A stretch of DNA of 64,000 bases from contig CAWIZE010000006.1 of the NCBI GenBank assembly GCA_963840545.1, positions 315,682-379,681 on the forward strand, in the 5' to 3' direction. Source of the stretch: an uncultured Pseudomonadota bacterium. Its GTDB lineage: Bacteria; Pseudomonadota; Alphaproteobacteria; Acetobacterales; Acetobacteraceae. Of the stretch, positions 12,786-26,901 are shown in pieces. Under the pieces are notes generated by a model, which saw only the letters and a list, made by a program, of their open reading frames with translations, was not told the origin of the DNA and did not search any database. The stretch's first letter is position 1. Every line of letters starts with the position of its first letter. The translations under genes were made by a program, and so were the position numbers.

Positions 12786-12942
12786 TTTCCGGGGTGACCC
12801 TTACTGTTTTCCAGCCGGATCCCGTCTTGGAGCCCTCCGGATCTGCCTTGACGCGAACCGATATCTCGACATTCCGAGCGACGTCATAGTTTCCCCGGCG
12901 CAGGCGTTGATCGATGGCGGTGACAAGGGACGAACCGGTCAT
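12709..12942 (-). CDS. hypothetical short protein, overlapping and possibly once fused to the 12387..12785 ORF
   Basis: Internal Met MTGSSLVTAIDQRLRRGNYDV... The frame differs by one nucleotide from the downstream ORF and overlaps it by 77 nt. Confidence 0.3.
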   Translation of the reverse strand: MTGSSLVTAIDQRLRRGNYDVARNVEISVRVKADPEGSKTGSGWKTVRVTPEIVASRTLCGLEGDKHHLADSCGLRG

Positions 12943-13170
12943 AGAAGCGGTCTCCCGAACCGACGGCGACGCCGTCGACGTTCGGGGAACGCTACCCCCC
13001 GCTCCGCGCGCCCGGCAACCTCCGTCCTGCCTTTCCCCGATGGTTCGCGATTTCGTGTACCCTTGCGGCGATTCCGCCCGCCCGCTCACCAGGCCCCGGC
13101 GCTGCCCCACCTTGCGGACTCCCATCCGACCAAATATATACCCCAATCTATACACACCATCGAGAGCCCC

Positions 13171-13440
13171 ATGCCGGAAACCCGCAAGGCAAAGCTGTTC
13201 CGCAACGGCGCCAGCCAGGCCGTGCGCCTGCCGGCCGAGTTCCGCTTCGAGGGCAGCGAGGTCTACGCCACGCGTGACGAGCAGTCCGGGGACGTGACGC
13301 TCTCCACGCGCCCGGGCGCGCGCGCCTGGGGCGAGTTCTTCGCCCTCATGCGCACCATCGACGTGCCGGCGGACTTCATGTCCGAGCGTCCGATGAACGT
13401 CCCGCCCGAGGAGCGCGGGTTGTTCTCCGACGCCGGATGA
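13171..13440 (+). CDS. vapB: type II antitoxin, VapB (AbrB/SpoVT-fold)
   Basis: MPETRKAKLFRNGASQAVRLPAEFRF is the classic SpoVT/AbrB swapped-hairpin N-terminus. There is a 4-bp overlap with the downstream PIN gene. Confidence 0.85.
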   Translation: MPETRKAKLFRNGASQAVRLPAEFRFEGSEVYATRDEQSGDVTLSTRPGARAWGEFFALMRTIDVPADFMSERPMNVPPEERGLFSDAG

Positions 13441-13853
13441 CGGTGCCGCTCCATCTGCTGGATACCGACATCGCGAGCTTCGTCATCAAGGCCCGCTCGC
13501 CCGCGATCGAGGCGCGCCTCGCCGCCATTCCCCCGGACCGCGTCTGCCTCTCAGCCGTTACCCGTGCAGAACTGATGTACGGCCTCAAGCGGCTGGCGCC
13601 GTCGCATCGGCTGCATGTCGGCGTGCATCAATTCCTCAAGCTCGTCCACGCCCTCGCGTGGGATTCCGACGCCGCCGACTGCTATGCCGACATCCGCCAT
13701 CGCCTGACCACCACCGGCCAGCCGATCGGCGAGATGGCCATGATGATCGCCGCCCATGCGCTTTCCGCCGGCGCCGTTCTGCTCACCAGCAACACCCGTC
13801 ACTTCGCGCGCCTCACGCCACCGCTGGTGCTGCTGAACTGGAACGAAACCTAG
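13437..13853 (+). CDS. vapC: type II toxin, VapC (PIN domain)
   Basis: LLDTDI..., TRAELMYG, ...MIAAHA and LLTSNTRHF are PIN/VapC landmarks. Confidence 0.85.
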   Translation: MTVPLHLLDTDIASFVIKARSPAIEARLAAIPPDRVCLSAVTRAELMYGLKRLAPSHRLHVGVHQFLKLVHALAWDSDAADCYADIRHRLTTTGQPIGEMAMMIAAHALSAGAVLLTSNTRHFARLTPPLVLLNWNET

Positions 13854-14249
13854 CGCGGCCCTTCCGACCGAAGGCCGCGCGTCTCCGGCAGAGCTTGGGC
13901 CATTCACCGCACACCAGCGGCCGACGGCCGCTGGCTCGATCCGGTCAGGTCGCTGACGGATTGGACCGGATAGATCGTTGACAGGTCTGTTGCACGGCGA
14001 GAAGGGCCCCGCCGATGCCTTGGAGCGAGACCTGCGCGATGGACGAGCGGATGCGATTTACTGTTGCGGCGAGCGCGCGCTCGTCGGATCGGGGTGCCGC
14101 CCTCAATCCTCCATCCGTCGCAAGCCGCGCGAGCCGCCAACCGCCCAAGAGAGAGCGGCGCAGAGCGCAGGGTCCATCTTTCCCTCGCCCGCTCTCACGC
14201 CAAACCCGGTCCGCCGCCCCTGAGTGAGGCCTCGCCCTCGCCGCCGTGC

Positions 14250-14942
14250 TCAGGAGGGCACGGCGGCGAGGATCTCATCGGCACTGCCGATCGCCCGATC
14301 CATGCATCCGAGGAACCATCCGAGCCACGGCGTGATGTCGAGATCGCCCCGCTGCGTCGCTTCCAGCCTTTCATAATACGCGTCGCGCTCGCGACGGATC
14401 TGCGCCGACATGCTGTAGAACCGCTGGGAGCTCCGTTCGCTCTGCGCAAGCATCATGTCGGCGATCGCCCGCGCGATCCGCCCGTTGCCGTCGTCGAACG
14501 GATGAACCGTCACGAACCGGAGATGAGCCACCCCCGCCTTCAGCACCGGATCGATCGGCGGGGCGCCGTTGAACCAATCGAGAAACGCGCACATCTCCCG
14601 ATCGAGGCGCCCGGCTTCCGGAGCCTGGGAGTGGGCCCGCTCCCGCCCGACCGGCCCGGAAACGACCTGCATCGGCCCGGCGCGGTCGTCCCGCCATGCC
14701 CCCACCCTGCCGCCGCGCGCGGTCGGGGAAAGCGCGGCGTGCCAGTCGAACAGCCGCTCCGCGGTCAGCGTCTCCGCATATCCCTGGGTCGCGTCGAGCA
14801 TCATCTCGACCACGCCCTCCACGGTCCGGTCCGCCAGGGCGCCGATATCCATCCCGAGGCGGGCGATCGCGACGGCTCCGATAACCTGTTGATAACGCCT
14901 GGAGGGCGCCATTGGCGTCTTTTTATTGCAATTGGGCGCCAT
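14250..14942 (-). pseudogene. Fic/DOC-family protein, 5'-truncated (DUF4172-type N-terminus missing)
   Basis: Fic motif HPFDDGNGRIARA. Similarity to the long Fic family starts only at about RRYQQVIGAVAIARLGMD. The ORF start overlaps the promoter/start region of the divergent higB-like gene. Confidence 0.65.
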
Positions 14943-14948
14943 TGGCGT
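14904..14948 (+). promoter_or_regulatory. two direct copies of GGGCGCCATTGGCGT (each with the palindrome CGCCA-T-TGGCG), candidate operator/promoter of the higBA-like pair
   Basis: Copies at 14904-14918 and 14934-14948. TTGCAA-N16-TATATT spans the second copy, just upstream of ATG 14960. Confidence 0.45.
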
Positions 14949-14959
14949 ATATTCCGAGG

Positions 14960-15304
14960 ATGCCGAGCGTTCCTCTCGCCGTCATTGAGACGCCGCAATT
15001 TCTGCGGCAAGCCGAAGACGTATGGACGGAGGCCGAGCGGCAGGAATTCGTGGATTACATCGCCCGCAACCCGGAGGTGGGTGACTTAGTCCCGGAGACG
15101 GGTGGCGTTCGCAAGGTGCGCTGGCGCCGCCAGGGGACAGGCAAGCAGGGCGGGGTGCGGGTGATCTACTTTTATTACAACGCGGTGACGCCGCTGTTCC
15201 TGCTCATGGTCTACGCCAAGGCTGTGCGCGAGGATGTAGCGCCCGAGGCGAAAAAGGCGTTGGCGGAATTCGCGGCACGCATCAAGCGCGCCGTGCGTGG
15301 ATGA
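14960..15304 (+). CDS. RelE/HigB-like type II toxin
   Basis: GGVRKVRWRRQGTGKQGGVRVIYFYY....LFLLMVYAKAVREDV matches the HigB-2/RelE-like family pattern. The toxin-first gene order is HigBA-like. Confidence 0.7.
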   Translation: MPSVPLAVIETPQFLRQAEDVWTEAERQEFVDYIARNPEVGDLVPETGGVRKVRWRRQGTGKQGGVRVIYFYYNAVTPLFLLMVYAKAVREDVAPEAKKALAEFAARIKRAVRG

Positions 15305-15319
15305 GGCGAGGAGGGCGAG

Positions 15320-15610
15320 ATGAACAGGTTCAGCCGTGATCTGGTGCAGGGCATGGAGGAAGCCGCCGCCTTCGCGGAAGGCAAGAAGGCTGGCGCGCGC
15401 GTGCACGTCGTCGCAGTGCCCGACGTGCGCGCCATCCGGCAGCGGCTTCACATGTCGCAACAGCGCTTCGCCGAGACCTACCGCATTCCGCTTCCGACGC
15501 TGAAAAACTGGGAGCAGGGGCGCCGCGCACCGGACGCGCCTGCCGCTGCCTACCTGCAAGCCATCTCGCGCCAGCCGAAGGCCATCAAGGAGGCGCTACA
15601 GCATGGATGA
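15320..15610 (+). CDS. HTH (XRE-type) antitoxin partner
   Basis: VRAIRQRLHMSQQRFAETYRIPLPTLKNWEQGRRAPD is a typical XRE HTH. The gene starts 16 nt downstream of the toxin. Confidence 0.75.
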   Translation: MNRFSRDLVQGMEEAAAFAEGKKAGARVHVVAVPDVRAIRQRLHMSQQRFAETYRIPLPTLKNWEQGRRAPDAPAAAYLQAISRQPKAIKEALQHG

Positions 15611-16056
15611 TCGGCTGTGATGCGGCCAGCTAAGATACCCGTGCGGGTCGTGTCTCGCCGAGTGGTGTAGGAGCTGCGGGTCAGTGGCCCGCCGGAGCGA
15701 CCGCCGAGAGCCTGGCGGAGGCGGGCTGTCCAGCGACATCCGGAAGTCATCCCCCGGCGACACGAGGAACTGACCCCGGTGCGGCTTGCTGCCCGGCCAG
15801 CGGTGTTTCTCTGTTCGGCTGAGCGAGGCGGTTTCCCCATCCCGGCCTGGTCTGGGCAAGGCGTCGCGCGCAGCCGCGGTCAAGCATGGCCGAAGGCCAC
15901 CGGCGGAGCCGGCGCGCGGAGGCCGAGGGCATCACTCAGAAGCAGGTGATGACCCGAGCCCTCGCTGCGGCGGGGCTTCCGGTCGATCCGCCTGATCTGG
16001 AAGATCGGACACCGCGGCGGCGCAGAGCTCCCTGGCGATTTCAGCTTGCCCTACTA

Positions 16057-16071
16057 TATCACGGAGTGATA
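16057..16071. promoter_or_regulatory. palindrome TATCAC-GGA-GTGATA, candidate TA operator
   Basis: A perfect 6-bp inverted repeat ending 6 nt upstream of the GTG start at 16077. Confidence 0.35.
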
Positions 16072-16076
16072 GAAAC

Positions 16077-16448
16077 GTGCCCGTTCGCTTGCTGAAAGAC
16101 CCCGAGTTCGATCGCTGGGCGCGCAAGGTGGGCTTGATGGATCAGGCGCTTCGAGCCGCCGCGGACGAGATTGAGAAGGGCCTCATCGATGCCCGCCTGG
16201 GGGGTTCCCTGGTCAAGAAGCGGGTGGCGCGGCCTGGACGCGGCAAGAGAGGCGGATATCGAACGATCCTGGCGCACCGGCAGGGGGTGCGACTGATCTT
16301 CCTCCACGGCTTCGCCAAGAACGAGACGGACAATATCACCAAGAGGGAGCGCCTGGCGCTTCTGGCTCTTGGTGATGAGGTACATGGGCCATGCCGAGCA
16401 GGTCATCGACGAGCTGGTGGCCAAGCAATTGCTTATCGAGGTGTGTGA
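16077..16448 (+). CDS. RelE/ParE-superfamily toxin (COG4737-like), C-terminus possibly frameshifted
   Basis: F.RWA.K.GL.D..L....EIEKGLIDARLGGSLVKKRVARPGRGKRGGYRTILAHR....IFLHGFAKNETDNIT matches the family pattern. The stop overlaps the antitoxin ATG (GTGATGA). Confidence 0.7.
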   Translation: MPVRLLKDPEFDRWARKVGLMDQALRAAADEIEKGLIDARLGGSLVKKRVARPGRGKRGGYRTILAHRQGVRLIFLHGFAKNETDNITKRERLALLALGDEVHGPCRAGHRRAGGQAIAYRGV

Positions 16449-16750
16449 TGAGCCGGATCCTGAAGAACGTCCACGCATCGGCCAAGCGCCTGCATGATGC
16501 GGGATACATGGATGCAATCACCATGCGCGAGTTTGACGCGCTGTGTCTGCCACCGTTGCACGACTATTCCCCGGCGCAGGTGCGTCGCGTCCGCGAGCGG
16601 ACCAAGGCGAGCCAAGCCGTTTTCGCTGCCGTTCTGAACGTCGGCGCCACTACGGTCGCCGCGTGGGAACAGGGCACCAAGAAGCCGTCTGGCGCCGCCG
16701 TGAAGTTGCTCGATCTGGTGGAGCGCAAGGGGCTGGGAGCGCTCGCTTAA
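16448..16750 (+). CDS. HTH antitoxin (COG2944/NadS-like)
   Basis: TMREFDALCLPPLHDYSPAQVRRVRERTKASQAVFAAVLNVGATTVAAWEQGTKKPSGAAVKLLDLVERKG matches the family pattern. Confidence 0.8.
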   Translation: MSRILKNVHASAKRLHDAGYMDAITMREFDALCLPPLHDYSPAQVRRVRERTKASQAVFAAVLNVGATTVAAWEQGTKKPSGAAVKLLDLVERKGLGALA

Positions 16751-16868
16751 GCGGGCGGGAAAGGGAGTGGAGGGGGAGGAGCAGGGCCCAGAACTTGTCC
16801 CCTCGGGGATTTGCGCATCCCTGTTATTCTGGCTGTATGAACAAATCTTCCGCGAGCGCCTTGAGCGT

Positions 16869-17056
16869 GTCAATCGGCGCGCAAATTCGATCTCGTCCAG
16901 CGTAGGCCAAAATGCTCTGATATTGTGGGGTTTTCGAAAACCTCGAGGGGTCGGGAGCGGCGTCGAACGTCGAGCCCGGCGATCAGCCGATTCGTCGAAG
17001 ATCACCAACGCATTGGAGGTGCTTCGGGACGGGGTCGATTTTGGGCGCCGATTGAC
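16869..17056. mobile_element. MITE-like element, copy 1 (188 bp, ~30-bp terminal inverted repeats)
   Basis: Left end GTCAATCGGCGCGCAAATTCGATCTCGTCC. The right end reverse-complements to GTCAATCGGCGCCCAAAATCGACCCCGTCC. It is about 85% identical to the copy at 18735..18923. Confidence 0.75.
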
Positions 17057-17212
17057 AGTCAATGCAATCTCGGGCCAACCGGCCTATGCGGGAAGCTGAG
17101 CGGCAGCTCCGGCTTCACGGTCTGGGCGCTCAAGCAGGGCAAGCCTCACCCGATGCGCTGCGCTGCGATCGCCGAGGCGGCCCGGCTCTGCATCCGGGCC
17201 TGACGGCTCGGC

Positions 17213-17662
17213 CTATCGCGGGGCATGCGCCTGGCGGCCGCGGGCCGGCGCGGTCGTGTCCTGGCGGGCCCTGAGAACGGCTAGGGCAGCAGGATCGTGG
17301 TCGAGCAGAGCAAGTGCGCTGCCAACGGCTCGGCTCGGAAGCAGGTCGCCCGTCTCGTATTTCTGAAAGGCGCGCGGGCCGCCACCGATCAATTGCCCGG
17401 CCTGCTCCTGGGTCAGGCGGAGCTTCTTGCGGATGCGGCGAATCTCTGCCGGATCGAGGAGACCTTCGGTCCGCGCCTTTAGCCGGTTAAGCGCCCGATC
17501 GGATAGCTTCATGTCCGCGCCGGTGTGGATGCTCTCTTCGGACGCATCGCAATACCAGCCCGGCATCTGGAAGGTGATGCTTTCGCCCTTGTAGGTCAGC
17601 GTCATCGGGCGCTCGTCCCGGTGCATTGGCGCTCCCGTTGCGGGGCAAACGGGATCAGTCAT
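17213..17662 (-). CDS. mqsA: type II antitoxin MqsA (zinc-ribbon-like N-terminus plus HTH)
   Basis: EIRRIRKKLRLTQEQAGQLIGGGPRAFQKYETGDLLPSRAV forms the HTH. The N-terminal ribbon retains only 2 of the 4 usual Cys. It overlaps the mqsR stop by 8 nt. Confidence 0.85.
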   Translation of the reverse strand: MTDPVCPATGAPMHRDERPMTLTYKGESITFQMPGWYCDASEESIHTGADMKLSDRALNRLKARTEGLLDPAEIRRIRKKLRLTQEQAGQLIGGGPRAFQKYETGDLLPSRAVGSALALLDHDPAALAVLRARQDTTAPARGRQAHAPR

Positions 17663-17972
17663 CGTCTTTCTCCTTGAACGACGATAGCAAAAATTCCCTC
17701 ACCGCATCGGCGGTGAATTTGACGTAGAGCAGGCCGGCAGGCGACGGCACGTGATGCACGTCCTGGCAGATGCGATGATCGGCATACGCTGTCATCGACT
17801 TATGGAAGTGCGGCCGTTGCATGAGCTGGATGGTCGCGACCATCTCGGCCCGGCCGAAGCCGAGTGCGGCAGCGCCCCTGATGGCGGCGCCTGTAGCGTG
17901 GAGTTTGTCCACGCTGTCGAACGCCCCTTTGAAGGCGTCGAGGTCATAGGTCGGCTTGCGCTTCCCCGTCAC
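17655..17972 (-). CDS. mqsR: type II toxin MqsR (mRNA interferase)
   Basis: FHKSMTAYADHRICQDVHHVP...LYVKFT.....LLSSFKEK aligns with E. coli MqsR (FYKSMTTYSDHTIWQDVY...LYLKIT...IVSFKEK). Confidence 0.88.
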   Translation of the reverse strand: MTGKRKPTYDLDAFKGAFDSVDKLHATGAAIRGAAALGFGRAEMVATIQLMQRPHFHKSMTAYADHRICQDVHHVPSPAGLLYVKFTADAVREFLLSSFKEKDDD

Positions 17973-17980
17973 CCAAGTAT

Positions 17981-18023
17981 ATTACACCATTATGGTGTAA
18001 TGTCAAGGCGCACCTTGATGGTG
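17981..18023. promoter_or_regulatory. two CACC-N5-GGTG palindromes upstream of mqsR, candidate MqsA operators
   Basis: ATTACACCAT-T-ATGGTGTAAT (17981-18001) is a perfect 10-bp-arm palindrome. A second CACCTTGATGGTG lies at 18011-18023. Both sit in the mqsR 5' region. Confidence 0.6.
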
Positions 18024-18165
18024 TATTCCGGCCTTAGAGACCGCCATACGCGCGGTAACCAATATCTTGCGTAGAGTTCGTATAGGCCGTATCATGGATT
18101 TACCGGTCTTACCAAGGATACGGACATGAGCCCTTCTGTCGAGCTCTCCCCAGACATTCGCCCGC

Positions 18166-18687
18166 TTGCAGGCACATGCGGTGCCGCTGGTGGACAATAT
18201 CGAGACCGTCATAAACAGGATGGTCGATTTCTATGAGAGCAGAGACGGGGCACCCGTCGCGGCATCCAAGAACGGCGACCACGAAAAGGTCCGTCAGTTC
18301 AATCCGGCAACGCCTCCGGACCTGACGCACACGAAGGTTCTGTCGATCGAGTTCTGCGGCAGGCTATTCGACCGCAGCCAGACGAACTGGAACGGCCTGC
18401 TCAATGCCGCGATCCGTGAGGCAAAGGGGCGCGCAAAGACGGCGAAGGACCTGAAGTCCCTAATCTCCATCCCCTTTGTGGACGGACAAAAAACCGATGA
18501 AGGCTATCGCTACCTTGCCGACATCGGAATCTCGGTTCAGGGTCAGGACGCCAACGGAGCGTGGCGGGCAGTCTATCACATTGCCCAGCAGATCGGCGAG
18601 CGGGTGCTCGCTACGTTCGTCTGGCGCGAGAAAGAGGGTGCTGCGTTCCCCGGCGTGACGGGCCGCTTCTCGATGTCGGGGCGTTGA
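18166..18687 (+). CDS. hypothetical protein (173 aa, no recognised family)
   Basis: ORF with a TTG start, divergent from mqsRA, between the two MITE copies. No motif recognised. Confidence 0.45.
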   Translation: MQAHAVPLVDNIETVINRMVDFYESRDGAPVAASKNGDHEKVRQFNPATPPDLTHTKVLSIEFCGRLFDRSQTNWNGLLNAAIREAKGRAKTAKDLKSLISIPFVDGQKTDEGYRYLADIGISVQGQDANGAWRAVYHIAQQIGERVLATFVWREKEGAAFPGVTGRFSMSGR

Positions 18688-18734
18688 TATCGGGGCGCGC
18701 GGGGCTTCCCCGGCGTCGATCAGGCGGCGGGCGC

Positions 18735-18923
18735 GTCAATCGGCGCCCAAATTTGATCCCGTCCAGCATAGGCCAAAATGTTCTGATACTGCGGGGTTTT
18801 TCGGAAACCCCGAGGGGTCGCGAGCGGCGCCGAACGTTGACCCTGCTGATCAGCCAATTCCTCGAAGATTACCAACGCATTGGAGGTGGTTCGGGACGGG
18901 GTCAACTTTGGGCGCCGATTGAC
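18735..18923. mobile_element. MITE-like element, copy 2 (189 bp)
   Basis: Ends GTCAATCGGCGCCCAAATTTGATCCCGTCC and GGACGGGGTCAACTTTGGGCGCCGATTGAC (27 of 30 TIR match). Same orientation as copy 1. Confidence 0.75.
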
Positions 18924-19225
18924 AGGCGGGGACCACGGCGCAGTTCCGGGGATCCCTCCGATCCCCCGGTGCCCAGCGGCGCTGCGCCACACCCCACCCC
19001 ACGCCTCGCCCGCTCGCGTCCCACCCCGCGCGCCGCCTTCCTTCCCCCCTCCCGCACATTTCCGGGTGAGCCCCGCTCGCGTTCGCTCGCCTGGCACCGC
19101 CTTCCTTCCCCTCGCCCGCATTTGGCGGGACAGGGTGGCGAGCGGAGCGAGCCGGGTGAGGGCGCCGCCCACCACCACGCCATCACACGGAGGGCGGCCC
19201 TGGAGTCGCGAGCCACCCCATGCTA

Positions 19226-19239
19226 GGTTACATGTAACC
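19226..19239. promoter_or_regulatory. perfect 14-bp palindrome GGTTACATGTAACC, candidate mazEF operator
   Basis: Read directly; it ends 14 nt upstream of the mazE-like ATG at 19254. Confidence 0.45.
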
Positions 19240-19253
19240 GCAAGAGGCGACCC

Positions 19254-19490
19254 ATGCCGGCACCAACCCCTGCCAAGCCGTCGCGCGATAAGGTGCGCGC
19301 CCATCGCGACCGCTTGCGCCGCCATGGCCTCCGCCCGATCCAGATCTGGGTTCCGGACGTGCGGTCACCCTCCTTCAAGGCCGAAGCCCACCGCCAGGCT
19401 CTGGCCGTTGCGAGGAGCGGGCACGCCAAGGAGGACCAGGACTTCATCGATGCCGTTTCCGAACTCGGCCACCCCTCCGACGCGGAATGA
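19254..19490 (+). CDS. mazE: MazE-family antitoxin (DUF3018-like)
   Basis: KVRAHRDRLRRHGLRPIQIWVPDVRSPSFKAEAHRQ is typical of DUF3018/MazE-like antitoxins. There is a 4-bp overlap with the toxin. Confidence 0.8.
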   Translation: MPAPTPAKPSRDKVRAHRDRLRRHGLRPIQIWVPDVRSPSFKAEAHRQALAVARSGHAKEDQDFIDAVSELGHPSDAE

Positions 19491-19831
19491 AGCGCGGCGA
19501 AATCTGGACAGTGGCCGCGGGCCAAGGATACGCGGGCAAGCCGCGGCCCGCCGTGATCCTGCAGGATGATCGGTTCGACGCCACGGACTCGGTCACGCTC
19601 TGCATCGTCACCACCGACCCCACCGACGCGCCTTTGTTCCGTCTGTCGATCGCCCCGAATGAAACGAACGGCCTCCGCGCCCAATGTCGCCTGATGGTCA
19701 ACAAGATCACGACCGTCCCCAAGGCAAGGATCGGCGCTCGCATCGGGCGCCTCAACGACGAGGACGTCGTACACCTCAACCGCGCGGTTATCGTCTTTCT
19801 CGGAATGGCGGGCGCCAACGCCGATGCCTGA
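19487..19831 (+). CDS. mazF: MazF/PemK-family endoribonuclease toxin
   Basis: MKRGEIW.V....GYAGKPRPAVILQDD.......VTLCIVTT is typical of MazF/PemK. Confidence 0.85.
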   Translation: MKRGEIWTVAAGQGYAGKPRPAVILQDDRFDATDSVTLCIVTTDPTDAPLFRLSIAPNETNGLRAQCRLMVNKITTVPKARIGARIGRLNDEDVVHLNRAVIVFLGMAGANADA

Positions 19832-19965
19832 CGAAGGACGAAACATCGCATCCGGCCCGGTGCTTCACCGACCGGCAGCAATAACAGAGATTGCGCAATT
19901 CTTGGCATCACCCTAAATAAGCCACCTGCGGGGCCTACCCGCGCGCGAAGGAGGGCAGGGCGGGC

Positions 19966-20211
19966 GTGAACGTGTCGATCGGCAATCGGTGGGAGAAATT
20001 CGTCGAGCACGCCGTGAAAAGCGGCCGCTACGGCTCCGCGAGCGAGGTCGTCCGTGAGGGGCTCCGCCTCGTCGAAGAGCGCGAGGCGAGGCTCCGCGCG
20101 CTCAAGGAAACTTTGAGCGCCTCAATCGCCGAGGGCGGCAGCTCCACCGACGATGACGTCGCCGCCGCGATCGCGGCCAAGGCCGCCGAGCTCGCCGCAC
20201 AGGGACTCTGA
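19966..20211 (+). CDS. parD: ParD-family (RHH) antitoxin, orphan (no parE downstream)
   Basis: VSIGNRWEKFVEHAVKSGRYGSASEVVREGLRLVEEREARLRALKETL is the ParD signature. GTG start. Confidence 0.8.
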   Translation: MNVSIGNRWEKFVEHAVKSGRYGSASEVVREGLRLVEEREARLRALKETLSASIAEGGSSTDDDVAAAIAAKAAELAAQGL

Positions 20212-20541
20212 GCGCCGCGTCTGCCACGCCCCAGCCAAGCATCGGGGCTCCGAGCCGCCCGGTGGACGATTACCGTCCAGGGTCGGCCACCTGAAAGTTA
20301 GAGCCACCGAGCGCGGGTAAGCCCAAACAGGATCTCTCCCCGGCTCCTTCCATCACGTCAAAGCAGACGCAGGCTTGCGATTTGAACTTGGCGTCGCGCT
20401 CGTGGCACACCCGCTAAGGTGTTCCCAATACAGCGACTTCCTTGCTTGGAGCAACGCACCCGTCTACCCTCCAACTCGAGGAAACCTGACCAAGCGTTCG
20501 GATCAGACCGGCTGCCAGAGACGGAAGGCAAGTAGCGGGAG

Positions 20542-21939
20542 ATGGACGTCGGGTATGGCCCTGAAGCGGAACGCACGCGCCATCTAGCCGAACTCACGCG
20601 CGGTTGGGGTGCGTGGAGCTCAATTTCGCTCTACCTCGACCGGTGTCAGGTCGACACGCCGGACGAACTCGTTAAGGCCACCTGGAGGCACGTTCAGCAG
20701 CTGAGAGACCAAGTTGGAAAGGTGGTAGACTTCGGAGCGGGGGACGGGCGTTTTGCACGCCACGGCCAGTACTCGGAATACCTCGGGTACGAGATCGACC
20801 GCCACCGCTGCTCCGGCGTCGCCCTCCCGAAAAACGCGACCCTGCTAAACCGCTGCGCCTTCTCAGACGAGATCGTCGACGCAGATCTCTCCATCGGCAA
20901 CCCCCCCTTTGTCCGTAACCAGGATCTGCCCGACGGCTGGCGGCAGAAGGCCTCGACCACGCTACTCCGGAGGACAGGAGTGGCAGTCTCGGGCCTCGCA
21001 AACGCGTGGCAGTACTTTTTCCTGCTATCCCTGGCCAGCCTCAAGCCGAATGGGCTGTGCGCACTGGTCATTCCGTACGAATGGGTGTCGCGTCCTTCGG
21101 CCAGGGAGCTACGCAGCTACCTAATAGAACAACGCTGGAATGTCAGCGTATACCGCCTCGTGGATACGACCTTCAACAGCGTGCTTACGACCTCCTCCGT
21201 TACGATCGTTGATAAGGCCCGGCGCGACGGGAGTTGGCTATATTTCGAGGAGAGAAAATCCGGTGCCTACAGGCCGCTGCAGTCGGCCAGCGGCGCAGCC
21301 GACGGCGTAATGCATTATTTGCGGCGTTCCGAGGTCGATCGCAACAGACCACACGCGATCCGCGGTTTGAGCCCTGGAACGCAGAAGGTACTCACCCTCA
21401 CCGAGGGTGAGCGGGTTCGGTTTGGCCTCCAAACCGACCGAGACGTGGTCCCATGTATCACCACACTGCGCCACCTTCCCGGGAATGTGAAAGAGCTCAA
21501 TGAAACCAACTTTCGGAAATTCTACCGCACGCCCGGCCAAAAGTGCTGGCTGATTAGAACCGACATTAAGCCGAGCCGGACACTCCAAGGGTACCTCAAC
21601 GTCGTGCCCGAAGGCGACTATCAGACCAGCACCTGCCTTGAGCGCGACGAGTGGTGGAAATTCAACATGCCACGCGTTCCCCCGCTGCTTATGGCGATGA
21701 GCTTCAAAGGGGAGTTCCCAAAGGCCGTGCGAAACAAGATCTCCGCTCGCGCGGTCGGTGGAGTGTGCGGAATATACAATCTCACCAAAGCCCAAGCTAC
21801 GCGACTAACGTCCGGGCTCGACGGCCTGGACATCCGCCCCCGCATCGTCGCCCACTCAAACGGGCTGCGAAAGATCGAAATCAACCAGCTCAACGCCCTA
21901 CTCGTCGAGGCGCTTCTCCGCGACCCGATCGCAGACTGA
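20542..21939 (+). CDS. N6-adenine DNA methyltransferase (gamma-type, Eco57I-like), no nuclease domain
   Basis: Motif I VVDFGAGDGRF (20722-20754). Motif IV GNPPF (NPPF at 20899-20910). The ~230-aa C-terminal half has no recognisable nuclease motif and is probably a target-recognition domain. Confidence 0.85.
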   Translation: MDVGYGPEAERTRHLAELTRGWGAWSSISLYLDRCQVDTPDELVKATWRHVQQLRDQVGKVVDFGAGDGRFARHGQYSEYLGYEIDRHRCSGVALPKNATLLNRCAFSDEIVDADLSIGNPPFVRNQDLPDGWRQKASTTLLRRTGVAVSGLANAWQYFFLLSLASLKPNGLCALVIPYEWVSRPSARELRSYLIEQRWNVSVYRLVDTTFNSVLTTSSVTIVDKARRDGSWLYFEERKSGAYRPLQSASGAADGVMHYLRRSEVDRNRPHAIRGLSPGTQKVLTLTEGERVRFGLQTDRDVVPCITTLRHLPGNVKELNETNFRKFYRTPGQKCWLIRTDIKPSRTLQGYLNVVPEGDYQTSTCLERDEWWKFNMPRVPPLLMAMSFKGEFPKAVRNKISARAVGGVCGIYNLTKAQATRLTSGLDGLDIRPRIVAHSNGLRKIEINQLNALLVEALLRDPIAD

Positions 21940-21948
21940 AGGCGAACC

Positions 21949-24204
21949 GTGACAGTCCATCATATCCTCGATAAGGGCACACTGACGTTCAGCATCGAAA
22001 GTCGAATACTTCGCGAACTTGGCGAGCGCCTCGTCAAGCAACCGGAGGTAGCCATCGTCGAATTGGTCAAGAACGCTTACGACGCGGACGCCACCGAATG
22101 CACTATCAGCTACGACCCGGGCAACGCGATCACGGTCAAGGACGACGGGCTCGGCATGACGCTCGCGCGCTTCACTGACGGTTGGATGCGCGTCGGCACA
22201 CGCTCGAAAGAAGCAGTGGGCCTTAGCGACAAGTTTGGTCGTCTTATCACTGGCGAGAAGGGCATCGGCCGCTTTGCGGTCCGATTCCTAGGGCGGGCCC
22301 TCCACCTTGAGTCGGTTGCTGACGACCGCGGCCGAGAACGGCGTACCCGCCTAATCACCGATTTCGACTGGCAGTTATTTGACCAGCACGAGGACCTCGG
22401 CGAAGTACGAGTGCCGTACCGGCTGGAGCGTGCCAACGCAGACACCCCGATCGGCACGACGCTCGCTATTACACGACTGCGACCCGAAATTGCGCGGCTC
22501 GACCTACGAAAGGTGCGAACGGGGTCAATTGGCGTGCTCACGCCGCTGCGATCGTTATTCCGCCGAACGCCGGGCACCGATGCGGCGGATCCCCCGAAAC
22601 GAGCGGACCAACCGGACCCCGGATTCACCCTGGAAATCCAAGAAGGCGAAGGCGAAGCTCCGCAGGACGTCGCGGGCGCGATCCTTGAGGGGTTCGTATT
22701 GCGTGCGCGCCTCCAGCTGAGCGGCGACCGGGTCGATCTTCAGGTCTATCGGCGCGACGAACAGAAGCCGTATTTAGCCGTCGTCGATACCTACCACAAC
22801 CAACTCGGGAAGCTGTACACAGACATCCGGTTCTTTCCACGCAGGAAGGGGGCGTTCTCGGAAATGCCGATCGACGGTCGGCAGGTGTCCACATGGATCG
22901 CCGCCAACTCCGGCATCGCGGTCTTTGACCGTGGATTCCAAGTTCAGCCCTACGGCACACCGTCTGATGATTGGCTACGACTGGCCGCGGACAATGCGCG
23001 CAACGAGCGCGCCCCTCGCTCCGATATCGCCAAGAAGCACTTCCCGATGCCTCCACAGGTCCGGGCGTCGACCTCGGAGAATTGGATGCTACGTCTCCCG
23101 CAGTCAGCCCAACTTGTCGGACTTGTCCAAGTGGAGGGCCGGCGGGCCAATGAGCGCGGAGCAGGCGAAGACGACGAGGGGCTTATCGCTTCGGCCGATC
23201 GAGAAGGGTTTGTAGAAAACAATGCCTTCTCTCAACTCCGAGACTTGGTCCGTGGGGCAGTCGAAACGATTGCGTACGCCGACCGGCGTCTCCAACAGGA
23301 ACACGAACAGACAGCGCGTGACGCGCTTGTCAAATCCATCCGCCGAGAGGCGCAGCTAGCAATCAGCGAAGTTCAATCCAACCGCAATATTGCAGCGCCA
23401 GACAAGGCGAGAATTGTTGCGGCGTTGGCCCAGACCCAACAGCTGGCTGAGCGACAGGAGGAGGTCGCCCGGGAGCGCGAACGGCAGCTAGAAATCATGA
23501 GTCTTCTTGGGGTCGTTGCCGGCTTTATGACGCACGAGTTTGGCATCGCATTGCAGGAGCTGGAGACAACGCACGCTGACCTGCTCGTACTTGCAAAAAC
23601 CCAGCCGAAGTTTATCTCGGTTGAGCAAAGAGTCTCTGACCACATCAAGAGCCTGCGCGAGTTCGTCACCTACTCGTCGGCCTACATCCAAGGCACTCGG
23701 AGCAAGCCAACGACGCCCTACCCTGTCAAACCGAGAATACTGCAAGTGAAGCGCATCTTCGGAAGATACGCCGAAGAGCGAAAAATCGAGGTGGAAATTA
23801 ACACCGAACCCGATCTGATGGCGCCGCCCGTTCCAGTTTCGCTCTACAACGGGATAGCTCTCAACCTTTACACCAATGCCCTCAAAGCGGTGACAGCCAA
23901 AACTGGCACTGGTCCCCGAATGATCGCGTTCCGCGCGTGGAACGACAATCGCTGGCATCACCTCGAGGTGTCCGACACAGGTATCGGCATTCCAACGGCA
24001 CTTCGAAGTCGTGTGTTCGATCCACTATTTACGACAACCAACTCCCGACGCGATCCGCTCGGTTCAGGGATGGGGTTAGGCTTGGCCCTAGTGAAACGAG
24101 GCGCCGAAGCGTTTGGCGGCCGCGCCGAGCTTGTCGCCCCACCACCTGACTTCGCAACCTGCGTGCAAGTCCGCTTACCACTGGACGTCGAGGGTGTCCG
24201 CTGA
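21949..24204 (+). CDS. GHKL (MORC/MutL-type, HATPase_c_3-like) ATPase fused to a histidine-kinase core (H-box plus HATPase_c), cytoplasmic
   Basis: N-terminal Bergerat motifs: ELVKNAYDA (22060-22083), DDGLGM (22141-22158), GEKGIGRF (22252-22275). A coiled-coil-like middle region follows. H-box GFMTHEFG (His529 at 23533-23535). C-terminal N, G1, F and G2 boxes: NLYTNALKA, DTGIGI, VFDPLFTT, GSGMGLGL. No TM segment. GTG start. Confidence 0.85.
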   Translation: MTVHHILDKGTLTFSIESRILRELGERLVKQPEVAIVELVKNAYDADATECTISYDPGNAITVKDDGLGMTLARFTDGWMRVGTRSKEAVGLSDKFGRLITGEKGIGRFAVRFLGRALHLESVADDRGRERRTRLITDFDWQLFDQHEDLGEVRVPYRLERANADTPIGTTLAITRLRPEIARLDLRKVRTGSIGVLTPLRSLFRRTPGTDAADPPKRADQPDPGFTLEIQEGEGEAPQDVAGAILEGFVLRARLQLSGDRVDLQVYRRDEQKPYLAVVDTYHNQLGKLYTDIRFFPRRKGAFSEMPIDGRQVSTWIAANSGIAVFDRGFQVQPYGTPSDDWLRLAADNARNERAPRSDIAKKHFPMPPQVRASTSENWMLRLPQSAQLVGLVQVEGRRANERGAGEDDEGLIASADREGFVENNAFSQLRDLVRGAVETIAYADRRLQQEHEQTARDALVKSIRREAQLAISEVQSNRNIAAPDKARIVAALAQTQQLAERQEEVARERERQLEIMSLLGVVAGFMTHEFGIALQELETTHADLLVLAKTQPKFISVEQRVSDHIKSLREFVTYSSAYIQGTRSKPTTPYPVKPRILQVKRIFGRYAEERKIEVEINTEPDLMAPPVPVSLYNGIALNLYTNALKAVTAKTGTGPRMIAFRAWNDNRWHHLEVSDTGIGIPTALRSRVFDPLFTTTNSRRDPLGSGMGLGLALVKRGAEAFGGRAELVAPPPDFATCVQVRLPLDVEGVR

Positions 24205-24932
24205 TGGCCGAACGAAAACCATCGATCCTCCTGATCGACGACAGAGAAGACCTGTTGGGGGACATGCGGGACCAGCTATCAGCGCTCGTGCCAACGGAAG
24301 AGGCAGAGATTAGGATTTGGGTTCCAAGCGACGCCGCCAAGAGCCCCCTAGAGTCCTTCGGAAGCAAGATTGACGATGAAACAATTCTGGTCGTCACGGA
24401 CTATGACCTCACCGGCAGAGGCGTAACCGGCCTATTCGGGGCCACCATAGTGAGCTGGTGCCAATCGCGCGCATTGCCGGTCGGAGACTTCTCGCGGGCC
24501 AACACGGCCTCGATCCCAAAGGAACCGAATCTTTTCGAACTTCGGGTGCCGACGGTCCCGGAGGAGGCAGCGCAGTTCACTGCTTCGGCCTTTCGAGGTT
24601 TCAAGCGGTTCCGCGACCTCATCGTCGCCAACGAAGGCACGTCGTCTGCGAAGGGCAGCCCGGCAGCCGCACTCGCGTCACTCCTTGGTCGCCCGCACTT
24701 GGAGAGCCAATTTACGCTCTACATGTCCCGACTTGGGTCCGCGAACTCGTCGCTGTTCGACCGTCTTCGGAATTCTGTCTCTCCTGAGGAGGCCCCGGAG
24801 AAAGACAAAAAGGCGCGGCTTCTCGCGTACGTTCTTGGGCACGTTCTGCTGAACGCTGTCCTGAAGTACCCGGACCGATCCTTTCAATACAGGCTCTCTG
24901 TGCTTACGTCGCCACGGTGCCGGCCGAGATAG
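24204..24932 (+). CDS. receiver (REC)-like domain protein, terminated by a TAG that is in frame with the next ORF
   Basis: SILLIDD (Asp12/13) and ILVVTDYDL (Asp66 at 24399-24401) resemble receiver acidic-pocket and phospho-acceptor positions. The start overlaps the upstream stop (TGATG). Confidence 0.6.
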   Translation: MAERKPSILLIDDREDLLGDMRDQLSALVPTEEAEIRIWVPSDAAKSPLESFGSKIDDETILVVTDYDLTGRGVTGLFGATIVSWCQSRALPVGDFSRANTASIPKEPNLFELRVPTVPEEAAQFTASAFRGFKRFRDLIVANEGTSSAKGSPAAALASLLGRPHLESQFTLYMSRLGSANSSLFDRLRNSVSPEEAPEKDKKARLLAYVLGHVLLNAVLKYPDRSFQYRLSVLTSPRCRPR

Positions 24933-25307
24933 GTGCCATCGCCCCATTGTTCGCTGAGGCTAAGTACCGATGGGCCGTTCTCCGAGCAAGGAAGGTACTT
25001 TTGGCGCGAGGACGTCGATGACGCACTCGACACGATGGCAGCCTCGCTTGCAGATGAGGGGTTCGAGGAATTTGGAGATTTTAACAGAAAAGCCGTGGAG
25101 ATTAAGCTTGGTCGATCGCTGGCCACCCACGAATGCACACGTTGCGGAGGCCGAAAGGGCGGCTTTCTTTGCCCTTTTACACAAAGGCCAGTCTGCCAAC
25201 GCCCAGACTGCTCGGTGCCCGCAAGCGGCTGGATCCCTGAGGGCGCGCAGCTATGCCGTGTGGAGCGCGGATTCTATGACGAATGGGCTCCCTTACTTGG
25301 CCTCTGA
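24933..25307 (+). CDS. Cys-rich ORF in the same frame as 24204..24932 (continuation or separate GTG-start gene)
   Basis: It begins at the codon immediately after TAG 24930-24932. It contains CTRCGG....CPF.....CQRPDC......C, a zinc-ribbon-like pattern. Confidence 0.45.
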   Translation: MPSPHCSLRLSTDGPFSEQGRYFWREDVDDALDTMAASLADEGFEEFGDFNRKAVEIKLGRSLATHECTRCGGRKGGFLCPFTQRPVCQRPDCSVPASGWIPEGAQLCRVERGFYDEWAPLLGL

Positions 25308-25323
25308 CGACTGACCCGCGATT

Positions 25324-26110
25324 ATGACTGGAGAGGCGCGGCGCTTGCTGAGGGAGCTACAGACCGCCTGGACGGGCGTACGGGCCGGAATGGCAAGAAT
25401 GTACGGCGCGAGCTCGGTAGAGCCAAAGGACTATCTGCAAATCTTCAAGGTCGAAGACGAAGAATGTGGCCAAATCAAGCTGGACGTCAGCCCAGTGGTG
25501 CTCAACGTTCCCGAGCGAGCAGGCAGTGGTTCCCTTGACCTCTACGTTGCCATCGCGGGATGGCTGTTGTTTGCTACGCGGAGGAACCAGGGCGACCCGA
25601 TCAGGACAGAGCGCTTTGGGACGAAGATTGGATATTTTCGTGCGAAGCGTGCGACACTTCAGCATGTTTATGGCGCGCATTACGACATCGAGGAAACGGC
25701 TCCGGGGCACCCCGTTTTTCACGGGCAAATTGCACCGCAGATGGAGTTCAGCAGCGATGTCCTCAACCTTTTTCATCGAGGCGGGGAACCCGAGAATCTC
25801 GTCAAACCGATCCTGAGGAACGTACCGTGTCCCGACCGCGCAGATGGATGTGTTCTCAGTGATCACCCAGGTTTGCGCAGACCACCTTATGTCGGCAGAC
25901 TCTGCCGCGGAGGTGCGGGAGGCCTTCAACTCGCTCCGAAAAGCCTGCGACTTTTTCACAGGCGCTGCAAATCGGCTAACGTACCTGAACAGCGGACCCG
26001 CAATATCCTGCTACCGGTCAACCCACTGGTACTCGGCACCACCGCCAGGCAGCGCCGCCGCCCGCGCGCAGCAAGGTAACGCACCCGCGCAGCCATTGTG
26101 CAAGTACTAA
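25324..26110 (+). pseudogene. unknown protein, apparently frameshifted (frame of 25324 switches to frame of 25844)
   Basis: After about 25817 the first frame becomes Arg-rich junk. The next frame, which has a stop at 25814-25816, continues with protein-like PTAQMDVFSVITQVCADHLMSADSAAEVREAFNSLRKACDFF up to 26110. Confidence 0.5.
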
Positions 26111-26315
26111 TGAAAAACCACGGGCGACGCTGCGCGATCGGCGAAGGCCTTCAGGTTGGGCGCGGCGACGGCGCCAAGGGCTCGCCTCCTGAGGGCCGGC
26201 GCAGCGCCCGAGGCCCTTCACAGCGAGGATCTGCCAGCGCGGAGCGCGGACGAGCAGCCGATCCTCGGCCACCGCGACCCATTTTGCCCCGCCCGCCCGC
26301 CTGAGGAGTACCCTC

Positions 26316-26576
26316 ATGACCAACGCCCAAGCCCTGATCGATAAGATCAAAACCCTGCCGCCCGAGCGGTTGGGCGAGGTCGAGGATTTCGTGGACTTTA
26401 TCGCCGCGAAATCGCGGCGGCTCGCCGCATTGGACCGGCTGCTCGCAATCGCCCCCGCGCTGGAAGCGGCCGGTGCGCCGCCGATCACGGAAGACGAGAT
26501 TCAGGCCGAAGTCGACGCCGTCCGCGCCGTCCGCGCCGCCCGGCAAATCCGAGGCGGCGGCGCGGATCGTCCTTGA
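26316..26576 (+). CDS. antitoxin-like protein (DUF2281-like N-terminus)
   Basis: ALIDKIKTLPPERLGEVEDFVDFI is typical of DUF2281-type antitoxins paired with PIN toxins. Confidence 0.6.
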   Translation: MTNAQALIDKIKTLPPERLGEVEDFVDFIAAKSRRLAALDRLLAIAPALEAAGAPPITEDEIQAEVDAVRAVRAARQIRGGGADRP

Positions 26577-26826
26577 CACCAATGTCGCCCTCTCCGCCCC
26601 GCTCCGGCGTGGCACGCCCTATCGGCTCCTCGACACCATCCGGCATCGGGAACAGATGCAGCTCTTCACGAGCATCGTGCTGCTGGAGGAATTGGCCGAG
26701 GTTCTGATCAGGCCAGCGTCATCGAAGCGCCTTGCCATCATCGGCCTCACCGCCAGCCAGATGCTCGCCGATTACGTCAATTCCGTCGATCTGGTGGCGC
26801 CGCTCGCGGTCCCCGCCACCCAATAA
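26563..26826 (+). pseudogene. PIN-domain (PIN_3-like) toxin remnant, no nearby start codon and 3'-truncated
   Basis: RIVLDTNVALSA.......LLD.......LFTS..LLEELAEVL matches the N-terminal two thirds of the family. The ORF ends before the expected RD..D and TGD acidic motifs. Confidence 0.5.
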
Positions 26827-26901
26827 AGGCTCCTTCCGCCCCGATGGCCCCGCCCGCCCGCCCGCGATATCCTCCCGCCGCCCGCCCGAGGAGTCGCCGC
26901 C

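Follow-up and report, generated by a model that had tools for sequence, protein, structure and literature searches.

What stands at the sensor's place in a histidine kinase that carries two ATPase modules, and what does such a kinase control? The question is raised by a gene in a 64,000-nucleotide stretch of DNA from an uncultured Acetobacteraceae bacterium (GenBank assembly GCA_963840545.1, contig CAWIZE010000006.1, positions 315,682 to 379,681 of the forward strand), the whole of which we call the window. Our results suggest that this gene encodes an AbrB-type kinase, with a paraMORC-like GHKL ATPase and a middle domain at the place of the sensor, and that the kinase is probably the signalling core of a mobile, methyltransferase-linked, four-gene cassette, a variant of the anti-phage system Ambrosia. 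The kinase gene is the second of a tight four-gene operon, which encodes in order a methylase (gene 1), the kinase (gene 2), a response-regulator-like (REC) protein (gene 3) and a His-rich protein (gene 4; Table 1). Note that the architecture of the kinase is already known, computationally since 2021 and experimentally, via a distant relative, since 2025.

The open reading frame (ORF) of gene 2 runs from a GTG start at 21949 to a stop codon at 24202-24204 of the + strand and encodes 751 amino acids (aa). A preliminary description of this DNA, made from its letters alone, had proposed two Bergerat-fold ATPase modules on one polypeptide, and both the ORF coordinates and every motif quoted there were recovered at the given place in the translation: ELVKNAYDA (aa 38-46), DDGLGM (65-70) and GEKGIGRF (102-109) in the N-terminal module; the H-box LLGVVAGFMTHEFG (aa 519-532), in which His529 corresponds to nucleotides (nt) 23533-23535; and NLYTNALKA (639-647), DTGIGIP (676-682), VFDPLFTT (689-696) and GSGMGLGL (705-712) in the C-terminal module. 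The proposal of two modules held, since both Pfam-A models score well over their curated cut-offs, HATPase_c_3 at aa 32-127 with 69.3 bits against a cut-off of 25 (E 4.4e-19) and HATPase_c at aa 636-746 with 76.1 bits against 26.4 (E 3.6e-21). No further Pfam domain was found in the kinase, and scanning the middle and DHp regions singly at E<=10 added none. The hydrophobicity peak (19-residue window, Kyte-Doolittle) reaches a mean of only 1.5 and is the H-box helix itself; thus the protein lacks a transmembrane segment and should be soluble. The Pfam and Kyte-Doolittle scans therefore agree with the earlier view that the kinase has neither a transmembrane nor a known sensor domain. Moreover, NCBIfam aligned aa 13-188 with the N-terminus of the BbrUII/HgiDII-family restriction enzymes (E 1.8e-20) and aa 447-748 with AtoS-type kinases. 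The PADLOC models for type II restriction enzymes also matched the N-terminal stretch, and PADLOC assigned the kinase to no other system.

The kinase belongs to a widespread family. More than 1,400 homologues at 60-75% identity are of equal length and have both domains, with Sphingomonas, Bradyrhizobium, Brevundimonas and Ciceribacter among the close ones, and an exhaustive search of 50%-identity representatives returned 635 clusters at E<1e-30, mostly in full-length alignments and down to ~27% identity. With so many homologues sharing its length and domains, the kinase ORF cannot be put down to chance. Scanning one genome per species yielded at least 574 loci across many bacterial phyla and archaea, the latter including Halostagnicola, Halolamina, Methanoperedens, Nitrosopumilus and Nitrososphaerales. 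Full-length homologues were seen in archaea (L009, L010, L056, L063, L066 and L068, one of them from an uncultured archaeon) and also in bacteria of the candidate phyla radiation (Paceibacterota; L016 and L060).

Conservation was read from a set of 58 diverse homologues with 22-58% identity, all 58 of which contain both Pfam domains. In the N-terminal module the residues of motif I (E38, N42 and D45), motif II (D65, G67 and G69) and motif III (G102, K104, G105 and G107) are invariant throughout the set. H529 is invariant too and E530 is conserved in at least 90%; in the CA (catalytic ATP-binding) domain N639, N643, G707 and G709 are invariant, and D676, G678, G680 and G711 are conserved in at least 90%. 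The profile of this diverse family matched the DHp and CA regions of solved histidine kinases in the PDB (best E 4.5e-24) and set H529 on the phospho-His of ZraS and ThkA (AHEIRNPL) and of HK853 (SHELRAPL); from about position 475-497 on it also aligned with the helices located ahead of the H-box in ThkA and ZraS. Note that the solved kinases were reached only with this diverse profile: the C-terminal half alone (phmmer, PDB, 1e-8) and the profile of the close family (1e-12) gave no PDB match. Since H529 aligns with the solved phospho-His and the residues of the N, G1 and G2 boxes are kept, the C-terminal half is, by every sequence criterion, a competent kinase core and not a degenerate dimerisation helix, and H529 is its predicted autophosphorylation site. 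The earlier call of His529 as the H-box histidine thus stands, and a C-terminal region devoid of a phospho-accepting His, which the same description had considered as the opposite outcome, is not what we found.

At the sensor's place, the N-terminal region is a GHKL fold by profile search (HATPase_c_3), as had been anticipated. The further claim, that this region is a clamp of the MORC/MutL type, goes further than these data: only a GHKL core of ~100 aa is recognisable, and in the strongly conserved middle region of 320 aa no similarity to an S5/transducer or clamp domain was detectable. With the family profile, the closest solved sequence in the PDB to the N-terminal module was MutL, across ~60 residues only. 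The middle region (aa 131-444) has no Pfam match at E<=10; it is marked by invariant residues (W141, F226, D341-W342, G391 and R418) and by the motifs DPGF, GFxVxPYG..DDWL (also written GFRVxPYG..DDWL) and DREGF. Because S5 similarity is not detectable there, the term 'DNA-clamp-type' is to be read as a hypothesis and not as a finding.

The partner of the kinase is encoded by gene 3, the ATG of which overlaps the kinase stop codon as TGATG. The REC-like protein that had been noticed downstream of the kinase is real, but it is broken as assembled, by two frameshifts and an in-frame TAG. Its REC-like N-terminal domain has D12 and D13, and D66 (nt 24399-24401) is its predicted acceptor; beyond the domain lies a helical region with a conserved stretch that resembles a helix-turn-helix of the winged type (wHTH; ..PGPL....LAARLG..), and in the window's clade the protein ends in a Cys-rich segment. 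The AlphaFold2 model of an intact homologue has a predicted local distance difference test (pLDDT) score of 78, and its first 90 residues (~84-95) form a clean (beta-alpha)5 domain. The top compact Foldseek match of the model was the receiver 2rdm_C (probability 1.00, template modelling (TM) score 0.61, E 0.02), and the full model gave weak flavodoxin-like and REC matches, none with E<0.01. Among 47 partners from diverse loci, the Asp that ends beta-3 (D66 in gene 3) is invariant and an acidic residue after beta-1 is nearly so; four of the 47 match Pfam Response_reg (PF00072; best E 2.9e-6). The close gene 3 family has no match in Pfam, NCBIfam or PADLOC, its profile gave chance-level matches or none against PDB sequences, and its hhalign comparison with E. 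coli CheY was not significant (0.15% probability). Since the CheY alignment failed, the case for gene 3 as a REC protein is built on the model, on the invariant Asp and on those homologues that match PF00072. Judged from these, a receiver partner of the kinase with an acceptor Asp is well supported, and phosphotransfer to it is predicted.

The same association recurs in distant genomes. In 82 species-level loci the ORFs were called and the genes around the kinase grouped into clusters. A REC-like gene lies directly 3' of the kinase in 69 of the 82 loci, a methylase lies within a few genes of it in 63, and 47 loci combine a methylase and a REC gene with a gene in the effector slot. The methylase neighbourhood is the one typical of MORC and paraMORC proteins, and in the window the methylase is directly upstream. 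The methylases of the survey are of the Eco57I-like N6 or the C5 type and are placed either upstream of the kinase or three genes downstream. Gene 1 matches Eco57I (E 4e-9) and N6_Mtase (E 1.3e-4) in Pfam and MTase_II in PADLOC (E 1.4e-17), with DFGAGDG as motif I and NPPF (aa 120) as motif IV. By hhalign, the N-terminal domains of the REC-like clusters are homologous to each other (93-96%). The effector slot is taken by the ~240-aa family that includes gene 4, by a further unknown family, by an HNH endonuclease or by a protein with the metallo-beta-lactamase fold, and across the 82 loci the REC sub-type co-varies with the effector type, which suggests matched REC-effector pairs. The main REC cluster accompanies gene-4-like families and an N6 methylase; a second cluster accompanies another unknown family, of 220 aa, and a C5 methylase; a short REC is paired with the metallo-beta-lactamase-fold gene, and HNH, the Ambrosia type, is accompanied by another short REC. 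An identical gene set and order was found in Sphingomonas carotinifaciens, Bradyrhizobium sp. USDA 4518 and two metagenome contigs (L001-L004), and on one of these two contigs a MobA/TraI relaxase adjoins the cassette. A copy of the cassette, 39.7% identical, is also carried by the Paraburkholderia largidicola megaplasmid NZ_AP023177.1 (L086), where an 81-aa helix-turn-helix (HTH) gene (L086:3337-3582) overlaps the methylase start and a tyrosine integrase lies ~2 kb upstream of the HTH gene.

Gene 4, at the effector position, has homologues at the corresponding position in many distant loci, and three clusters of these proteins were linked by hhalign (95.8% and 97.1%). Invariant in the family (P0261 numbering) are H115, H120, Y121, D122, H130, H134, Q136 and R169, and further D176, D187, H188, C230, R232, H235, W236 and Y237. 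The AlphaFold2 model for the gene 4 family, another member of which is L003:11396-12121, is confident (pLDDT 87.5, predicted template modelling score 0.87). It shows a long N-terminal helix, a large antiparallel sheet and a helical C-terminal part. Foldseek comparison of the gene 4 model with the PDB and BFVD returned nothing at E<0.01 or with a meaningful TM-score; gene 4 has no match in Pfam (HNH included), NCBIfam or PADLOC, and a profile search of the PDB with its family gave chance-level matches or none. Judging by the model, the gene 4 family may represent a new effector fold. Because HNH and metallo-beta-lactamase genes fill the same slot in sister cassettes, gene 4 could, by analogy, be a metal-dependent effector of the nuclease type.

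The closest experimental counterpart is Ambrosia, which according to a 2025 preprint blocks phages in P. aeruginosa and consists of AbrR (XRE), AbrA (N6 methylase), AbrB (HATPase), AbrC (REC) and AbrD (HNH) (10.1101/2025.09.30.679545). AbrB has 747 aa with HATPase_c_3 and HATPase_c, and the N40A mutant, in ELVKN40AYDADA, is described in the supplement; both AbrB N40A and AbrC D60A abolish defence (10.1101/2025.09.30.679545). In our comparison, which covered AbrB residues 1-399, aa 10-423 of the window kinase aligned with this segment (BLASTP E 3e-22, ~26% identity), and the kinase-family profile matched AbrB with 100% probability in hhalign (E 1e-56, 370 columns). AbrC matched the REC-family profile with 93% probability, D60 falling on the invariant acceptor column. 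Thus homology between AbrB and the window kinase extends over the GHKL and middle regions, the essential AbrB N40 corresponds to N42 of the window kinase, and the essential AbrC D60 corresponds to D66 of gene 3. The order of N6 methylase, kinase, REC protein and small effector is also shared; AbrA and gene 1 are both N6-adenine enzymes with NPPF, but they come from different Pfam families and lack pairwise similarity. The two systems differ in the size of the REC protein, since gene 3 encodes 367 aa with a helical and Cys-rich C-terminal part and AbrC has 209 aa. The published survey counted ~537 Ambrosia instances, mostly in Pseudomonadales and only across Gammaproteobacteria (10.1101/2025.09.30.679545).

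The kinase also belongs with pairs described from sequence by Bellieny-Rabelo et al. in 2021, whose starting point, a protein of Pectobacterium, carries 'two HATPase domains (PF02518; PF13589)' and who reported kinases of the composition HATPase_c_3+HEF_HK+HATPase_c beside REC-like proteins and methylases (PMC8011034). Their study defined the DHp domain HEF_HK (PF19191) and Response_reg_2 (PF19192), found the two gene families linked in 91.6%, noted the association with methylases and restriction-modification (R-M) genes and already placed HATPase_c_3 at the sensor position; some members (groups 2 and 3) lack one of the two ATPase modules (PMC8011034). The window kinase resembles these pairs in its group 1 architecture, its solubility, its T-H-E-F motif, the adjacent REC-like gene and the methylase neighbour. 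It differs in not reaching the score of the HEF_HK model and in having an N6-adenine methylase as neighbour, whereas the 2021 paper stressed the C5 type. Moreover, that work was purely computational and did not count the fourth gene in the unit.

Other systems share single elements of this design. MORC and paraMORC proteins combine a GHKL module with an S5 domain, and paraMORCs often have a C-terminal nuclease (Iyer, Abhiman and Aravind 2008, PMC2292703). With them and with the BbrUII/HgiDII enzymes the window kinase has in common an N-terminal GHKL module with intact motifs in a methylase or R-M neighbourhood; unlike paraMORC and MORC, it has no detectable S5 domain, and its C-terminal module is a histidine-kinase core instead of a nuclease. 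In VcSduA of Vibrio cholerae (Shedu type I-D, formerly paraMORC3), an anti-phage protein, the N-terminal GHKL ATPase is required to control the C-terminal output (PMC12137116). By its description, this validated anti-phage protein is therefore alike in that an N-terminal GHKL module governs a C-terminal output, but the output is a PD-(D/E)xK nuclease fused in one protein, and there is neither a phosphorelay nor a methylase. Compared with the canonical HisKA kinases, the DHp H-E motif and the N, G1, F and G2 boxes of the CA domain align with those of ZraS, ThkA, HK853 and AtoS (E down to 4.5e-24), whereas transmembrane, PAS, HAMP and GAF domains are lacking and the input side is a second Bergerat-fold ATPase. 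Detocs (DtcABC) provides anti-phage immunity through signalling from a histidine kinase to a receiver; its sensor region differs, one of its receiver proteins acts as a buffer and its effector is a nucleosidase fused to a receiver, and it is not known to have a methylase or a second GHKL module. The candidates MADS, Hma, BREX/DISARM and Detocs were rejected: PADLOC gave a weak mad2/DrmMI match, to the methylase domain of gene 1 only.

Several observations weigh against reading the locus as an Ambrosia variant whose kinase senses DNA. The sequence profile of aa 128-450 found no S5, DNA-binding or other match in the PDB, and the experimental study of Ambrosia did not identify the signal that the system senses (10.1101/2025.09.30.679545). 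The experimental evidence comes from the distant relative in Ambrosia and not from the clade of the window. The window kinase does not match the HEF_HK model of Pfam even at E<=10; four of the 58 diverse homologues do (best E 5e-5), and P0367, 38% identical to the window kinase, reaches 19.9 bits against a cut-off of 24.1. On the side of gene 3, the Foldseek support for a REC fold is not significant (E 0.02), and Response_reg_2 (PF19192) was matched by none of the scanned proteins, the 47 distant partners included, a negative in which the model may be absent from the Pfam copy used. Compared with Ambrosia, gene 1 is of the Eco57I type, belongs to another Pfam family than AbrA and has no pairwise similarity to it; gene 4 is His-rich, with no HNH match and no similarity to AbrD, and no recognisable nuclease fold appeared for it in the PDB and BFVD searches. 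In the window no HTH ORF lies between ParD (19966-20211) and the methylase, so that no AbrR-like XRE gene precedes the cassette; some members of its clade do have an AbrR-like regulator, as in L086. Finally, genes 3 and 4 are disrupted as assembled.

The disruptions have a common position. Compared with intact homologues, the C/G run of gene 3 at 24869-24873 is 1 nt short as assembled and a surplus C stands at 24968, with a TAG at 24930-24932 in the out-of-frame stretch between these two indels; gene 4 is frameshifted by an extra C at 25826. All three 1-nt indels lie immediately 3' of GTAC (positions 24866-24873, 24964-24969 and 25822-25827). The assembled sites read GTACCCGG, GTACCGAT and GTACCGTG, where the homologues imply GTACCCCGG (or GTACCCGGG), GTACGAT and GTACGTG. 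There are 10 GTAC sites in the 1.9 kb, and we estimate the chance of all three indels falling beside one at ~1e-6. The methylase and the kinase, which together contain 12 GTAC sites, are intact. A window-wide error at GTAC was sought from the phase of the third-position GC content on both sides of 54 GTAC sites, and no clear frame change was seen elsewhere; the phase changed at two of the 54 sites, against a control rate of 2.6%. These two sites, 46318 and 55141, may be gene boundaries. The GTAC-adjacent indels may stem from motif-specific miscalling of bases at a modified site, or they may be genuine lesions, and the cassette in this assembly is either mis-assembled at three sites or no longer functional.

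How these indels are taken decides between an active cassette and a decaying remnant, in which the methylase and the kinase would be intact, the REC and effector genes frameshifted, and the kinase left with no functional output. We regard the remnant as a serious possibility, though not as the favoured one. Defence cassettes commonly lose toxic effectors. The three 1-nt indels and the in-frame TAG in genes 3 and 4 fit such a loss, as do the truncated 242-aa and 244-aa products on record for the source contig of 391 kb and the fact that the fumarase, the FAD oxidoreductase, the methylase and the kinase of the window are all full length. Yet every indel alters a short run of C (or C/G) right after GTAC, a coincidence of ~1e-6 for independent mutations, and the pattern looks more as if base calling or assembly had erred systematically; apart from the indels, genes 3 and 4 are well conserved and contain no further stops.

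Another explanation accepts the phosphorelay and denies it an infection or DNA cue: kinase and REC protein would form a housekeeping circuit, resembling that of a C protein, that times or tunes the methylase and a restriction-type partner, for instance upon entry into a new host or in response to the level of ATP or other nucleoside triphosphates (NTPs). Regulation of R-M was indeed proposed in PMC8011034, together with the suggestion that HATPase_c_3 might sense intracellular NTP. The wHTH-like stretch of the REC-protein family, the wHTH reported for AbrC, the transcriptional induction of the Ambrosia genes and the HTH gene overlapping the methylase start in the Paraburkholderia plasmid copy would all suit a regulatory circuit. 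We nevertheless think this explanation unlikely. Ambrosia expression rises upon infection (10.1101/2025.09.30.679545), so that the induction follows the phage, and Ambrosia protects against phages. Moreover, phage from cells with only the methylase, and thus pre-methylated by AbrA, stays sensitive (10.1101/2025.09.30.679545), so Ambrosia is not a conventional R-M pair. Co-variation of REC and effector is expected if the two act together and not for a REC protein that acts only on promoters, and the window cassette contains no classical restriction endonuclease (Pfam, PADLOC). A further reading takes the C-terminal half as a degenerate pseudo-kinase or dimerisation scaffold and the protein as acting only as an ATPase of the paraMORC type. 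It could appeal to the lack of a match of the window kinase to Pfam HisKA and HEF_HK and to the published groups 2 and 3, which lack one ATPase module; against this stand H529, E530 and the N/G-box residues, which are invariant or kept in at least 90% of the homologues even where identity drops to 22%, the alignment of H529 with the phospho-His of solved kinases, the translationally coupled REC partner with its invariant acceptor Asp, and the abolition of defence by AbrC D60A in the relative. We consider that reading highly improbable.

Under the preferred reading, an AbrB-type kinase at the core of an Ambrosia-variant cassette, signalling would proceed as follows. The N-terminal ATPase and the middle domain would form the input, with ATP binding or hydrolysis answering an infection-associated cue, for which DNA that is foreign or unmodified, or else a nucleoprotein state, is the most plausible candidate. 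The change would be relayed through the charged helical linker to the DHp region, where the CA domain, the motifs and alignment of which are given above, would phosphorylate His529. The phosphoryl group would then pass to Asp66 of the translationally coupled REC protein, in which partner and invariant Asp are both observed; the predicted transfer is supported by the loss of defence in AbrC D60A of the relative. Phospho-REC, in turn, would turn on the output, either by raising the expression of methylase and effector, as in the working model of Ambrosia, or by activating gene 4 directly.

The state of DNA, to which the preliminary description had pointed as the input, may plausibly be what the kinase reads and fits both the methylase linkage and the defence context. 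A simple R-M logic is cautioned against by analogy with Ambrosia, since pre-methylation by AbrA gives the phage no protection. A more specific chain can be formulated, in which the GHKL and middle domains would read the DNA state directly (e.g. DNA lacking the cassette's own N6-adenine methylation), a His-to-Asp phosphorelay would follow and phospho-REC would license gene 4 as a new His-rich, metal-dependent effector fold; in this complete form we hold it to be a long shot. If true, it would amount to restriction-like immunity in which a phosphorelay separates recognition from cleavage, and the three GTAC-adjacent indels could hint at the motif modified by the cassette.

Regardless of the signal, AbrB, the published HEF_HK kinases and the window kinase come together as one very large family, with 635 clusters in many phyla and archaea, which usually sits in a cassette of methylase, kinase, REC protein and effector. 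The effector slot is modular and is filled by HNH, metallo-beta-lactamase or the ~240-aa His-rich family; the latter, which includes gene 4, is modelled with confidence, and neither a solved nor a viral structure matches it. The principle of Ambrosia may thus be far more widespread than the ~537 reported instances.

Table 1. Coordinates, in the window, of the cassette genes, of the regions of the kinase and of the surrounding island
Feature	Position	Strand	Evidence
Gene 1, gamma-class N6-adenine DNA methyltransferase, Eco57I-type, 465 aa	20542..21939	+	Pfam, PADLOC, motifs
Gene 2, AbrB-type soluble histidine kinase, 751 aa, two GHKL modules	21949..24204	+	Pfam, NCBIfam, homologues, profiles
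N-terminal GHKL ATPase core, aa 32-127	22042..22329	+	Pfam HATPase_c_3, invariant motif residues
Family-specific middle region, aa 128-444	22330..23280	+	Conservation in the family, AbrB included
Charged linker, predicted helical, aa 445-515, between middle region and DHp	23281..23493	+	Sequence
DHp / H-box region, aa 516-590, predicted phospho-acceptor His529 then E530	23494..23718	+	Conservation, profile alignment
CA (catalytic ATP-binding) domain, aa 636-746, N/G1/F/G2 boxes	23854..24186	+	Pfam HATPase_c, PDB profile matches
Gene 3, response-regulator-like protein, 367 aa after correcting two indels	24204..25307	+	Intact homologues, AlphaFold2 model, invariant Asp
Gene 4, His-rich protein, 261 aa after correcting one indel	25324..26110	+	Homologue alignment, AlphaFold2 model
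Low-GC island carrying the cassette, GC 0.59-0.65 vs ~0.70	12907..26826	.	Composition, Pfam

A near-identical copy of part of the surrounding island is on record. Positions 1-9108 of L005 (ENA ERZ25039540 contig_47819) correspond to window 17891-26853, with 94% identity and 175 gaps (86% in the segment shown), too noisy at the indel sites to arbitrate between artefact and lesion. Long perfect stretches of L005 are broken by noisy patches, and its methylase and kinase are also split by apparent frameshifts; L005 probably represents an element nearly identical to this one in a long-read assembly that was not polished. A sigma-70 promoter scan of the cassette gave 0 promoter-like sites, and terminator-like sites were as frequent as expected from shuffled sequence, which is uninformative.

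The island itself consists, at 12907-20211 and 26316-26826, almost entirely of type II toxin-antitoxin modules (Pfam): MazE+PIN, Fic/DOC, RelE-like+HTH, MqsA-like HTH, MqsR/MqsA, MazE-like+PemK and ParD. This toxin-antitoxin island is the context in which the window cassette may, by analogy with Ambrosia, play an anti-phage role. A DUF2281 gene and a truncated PIN gene of the island abut the fumarase gene.

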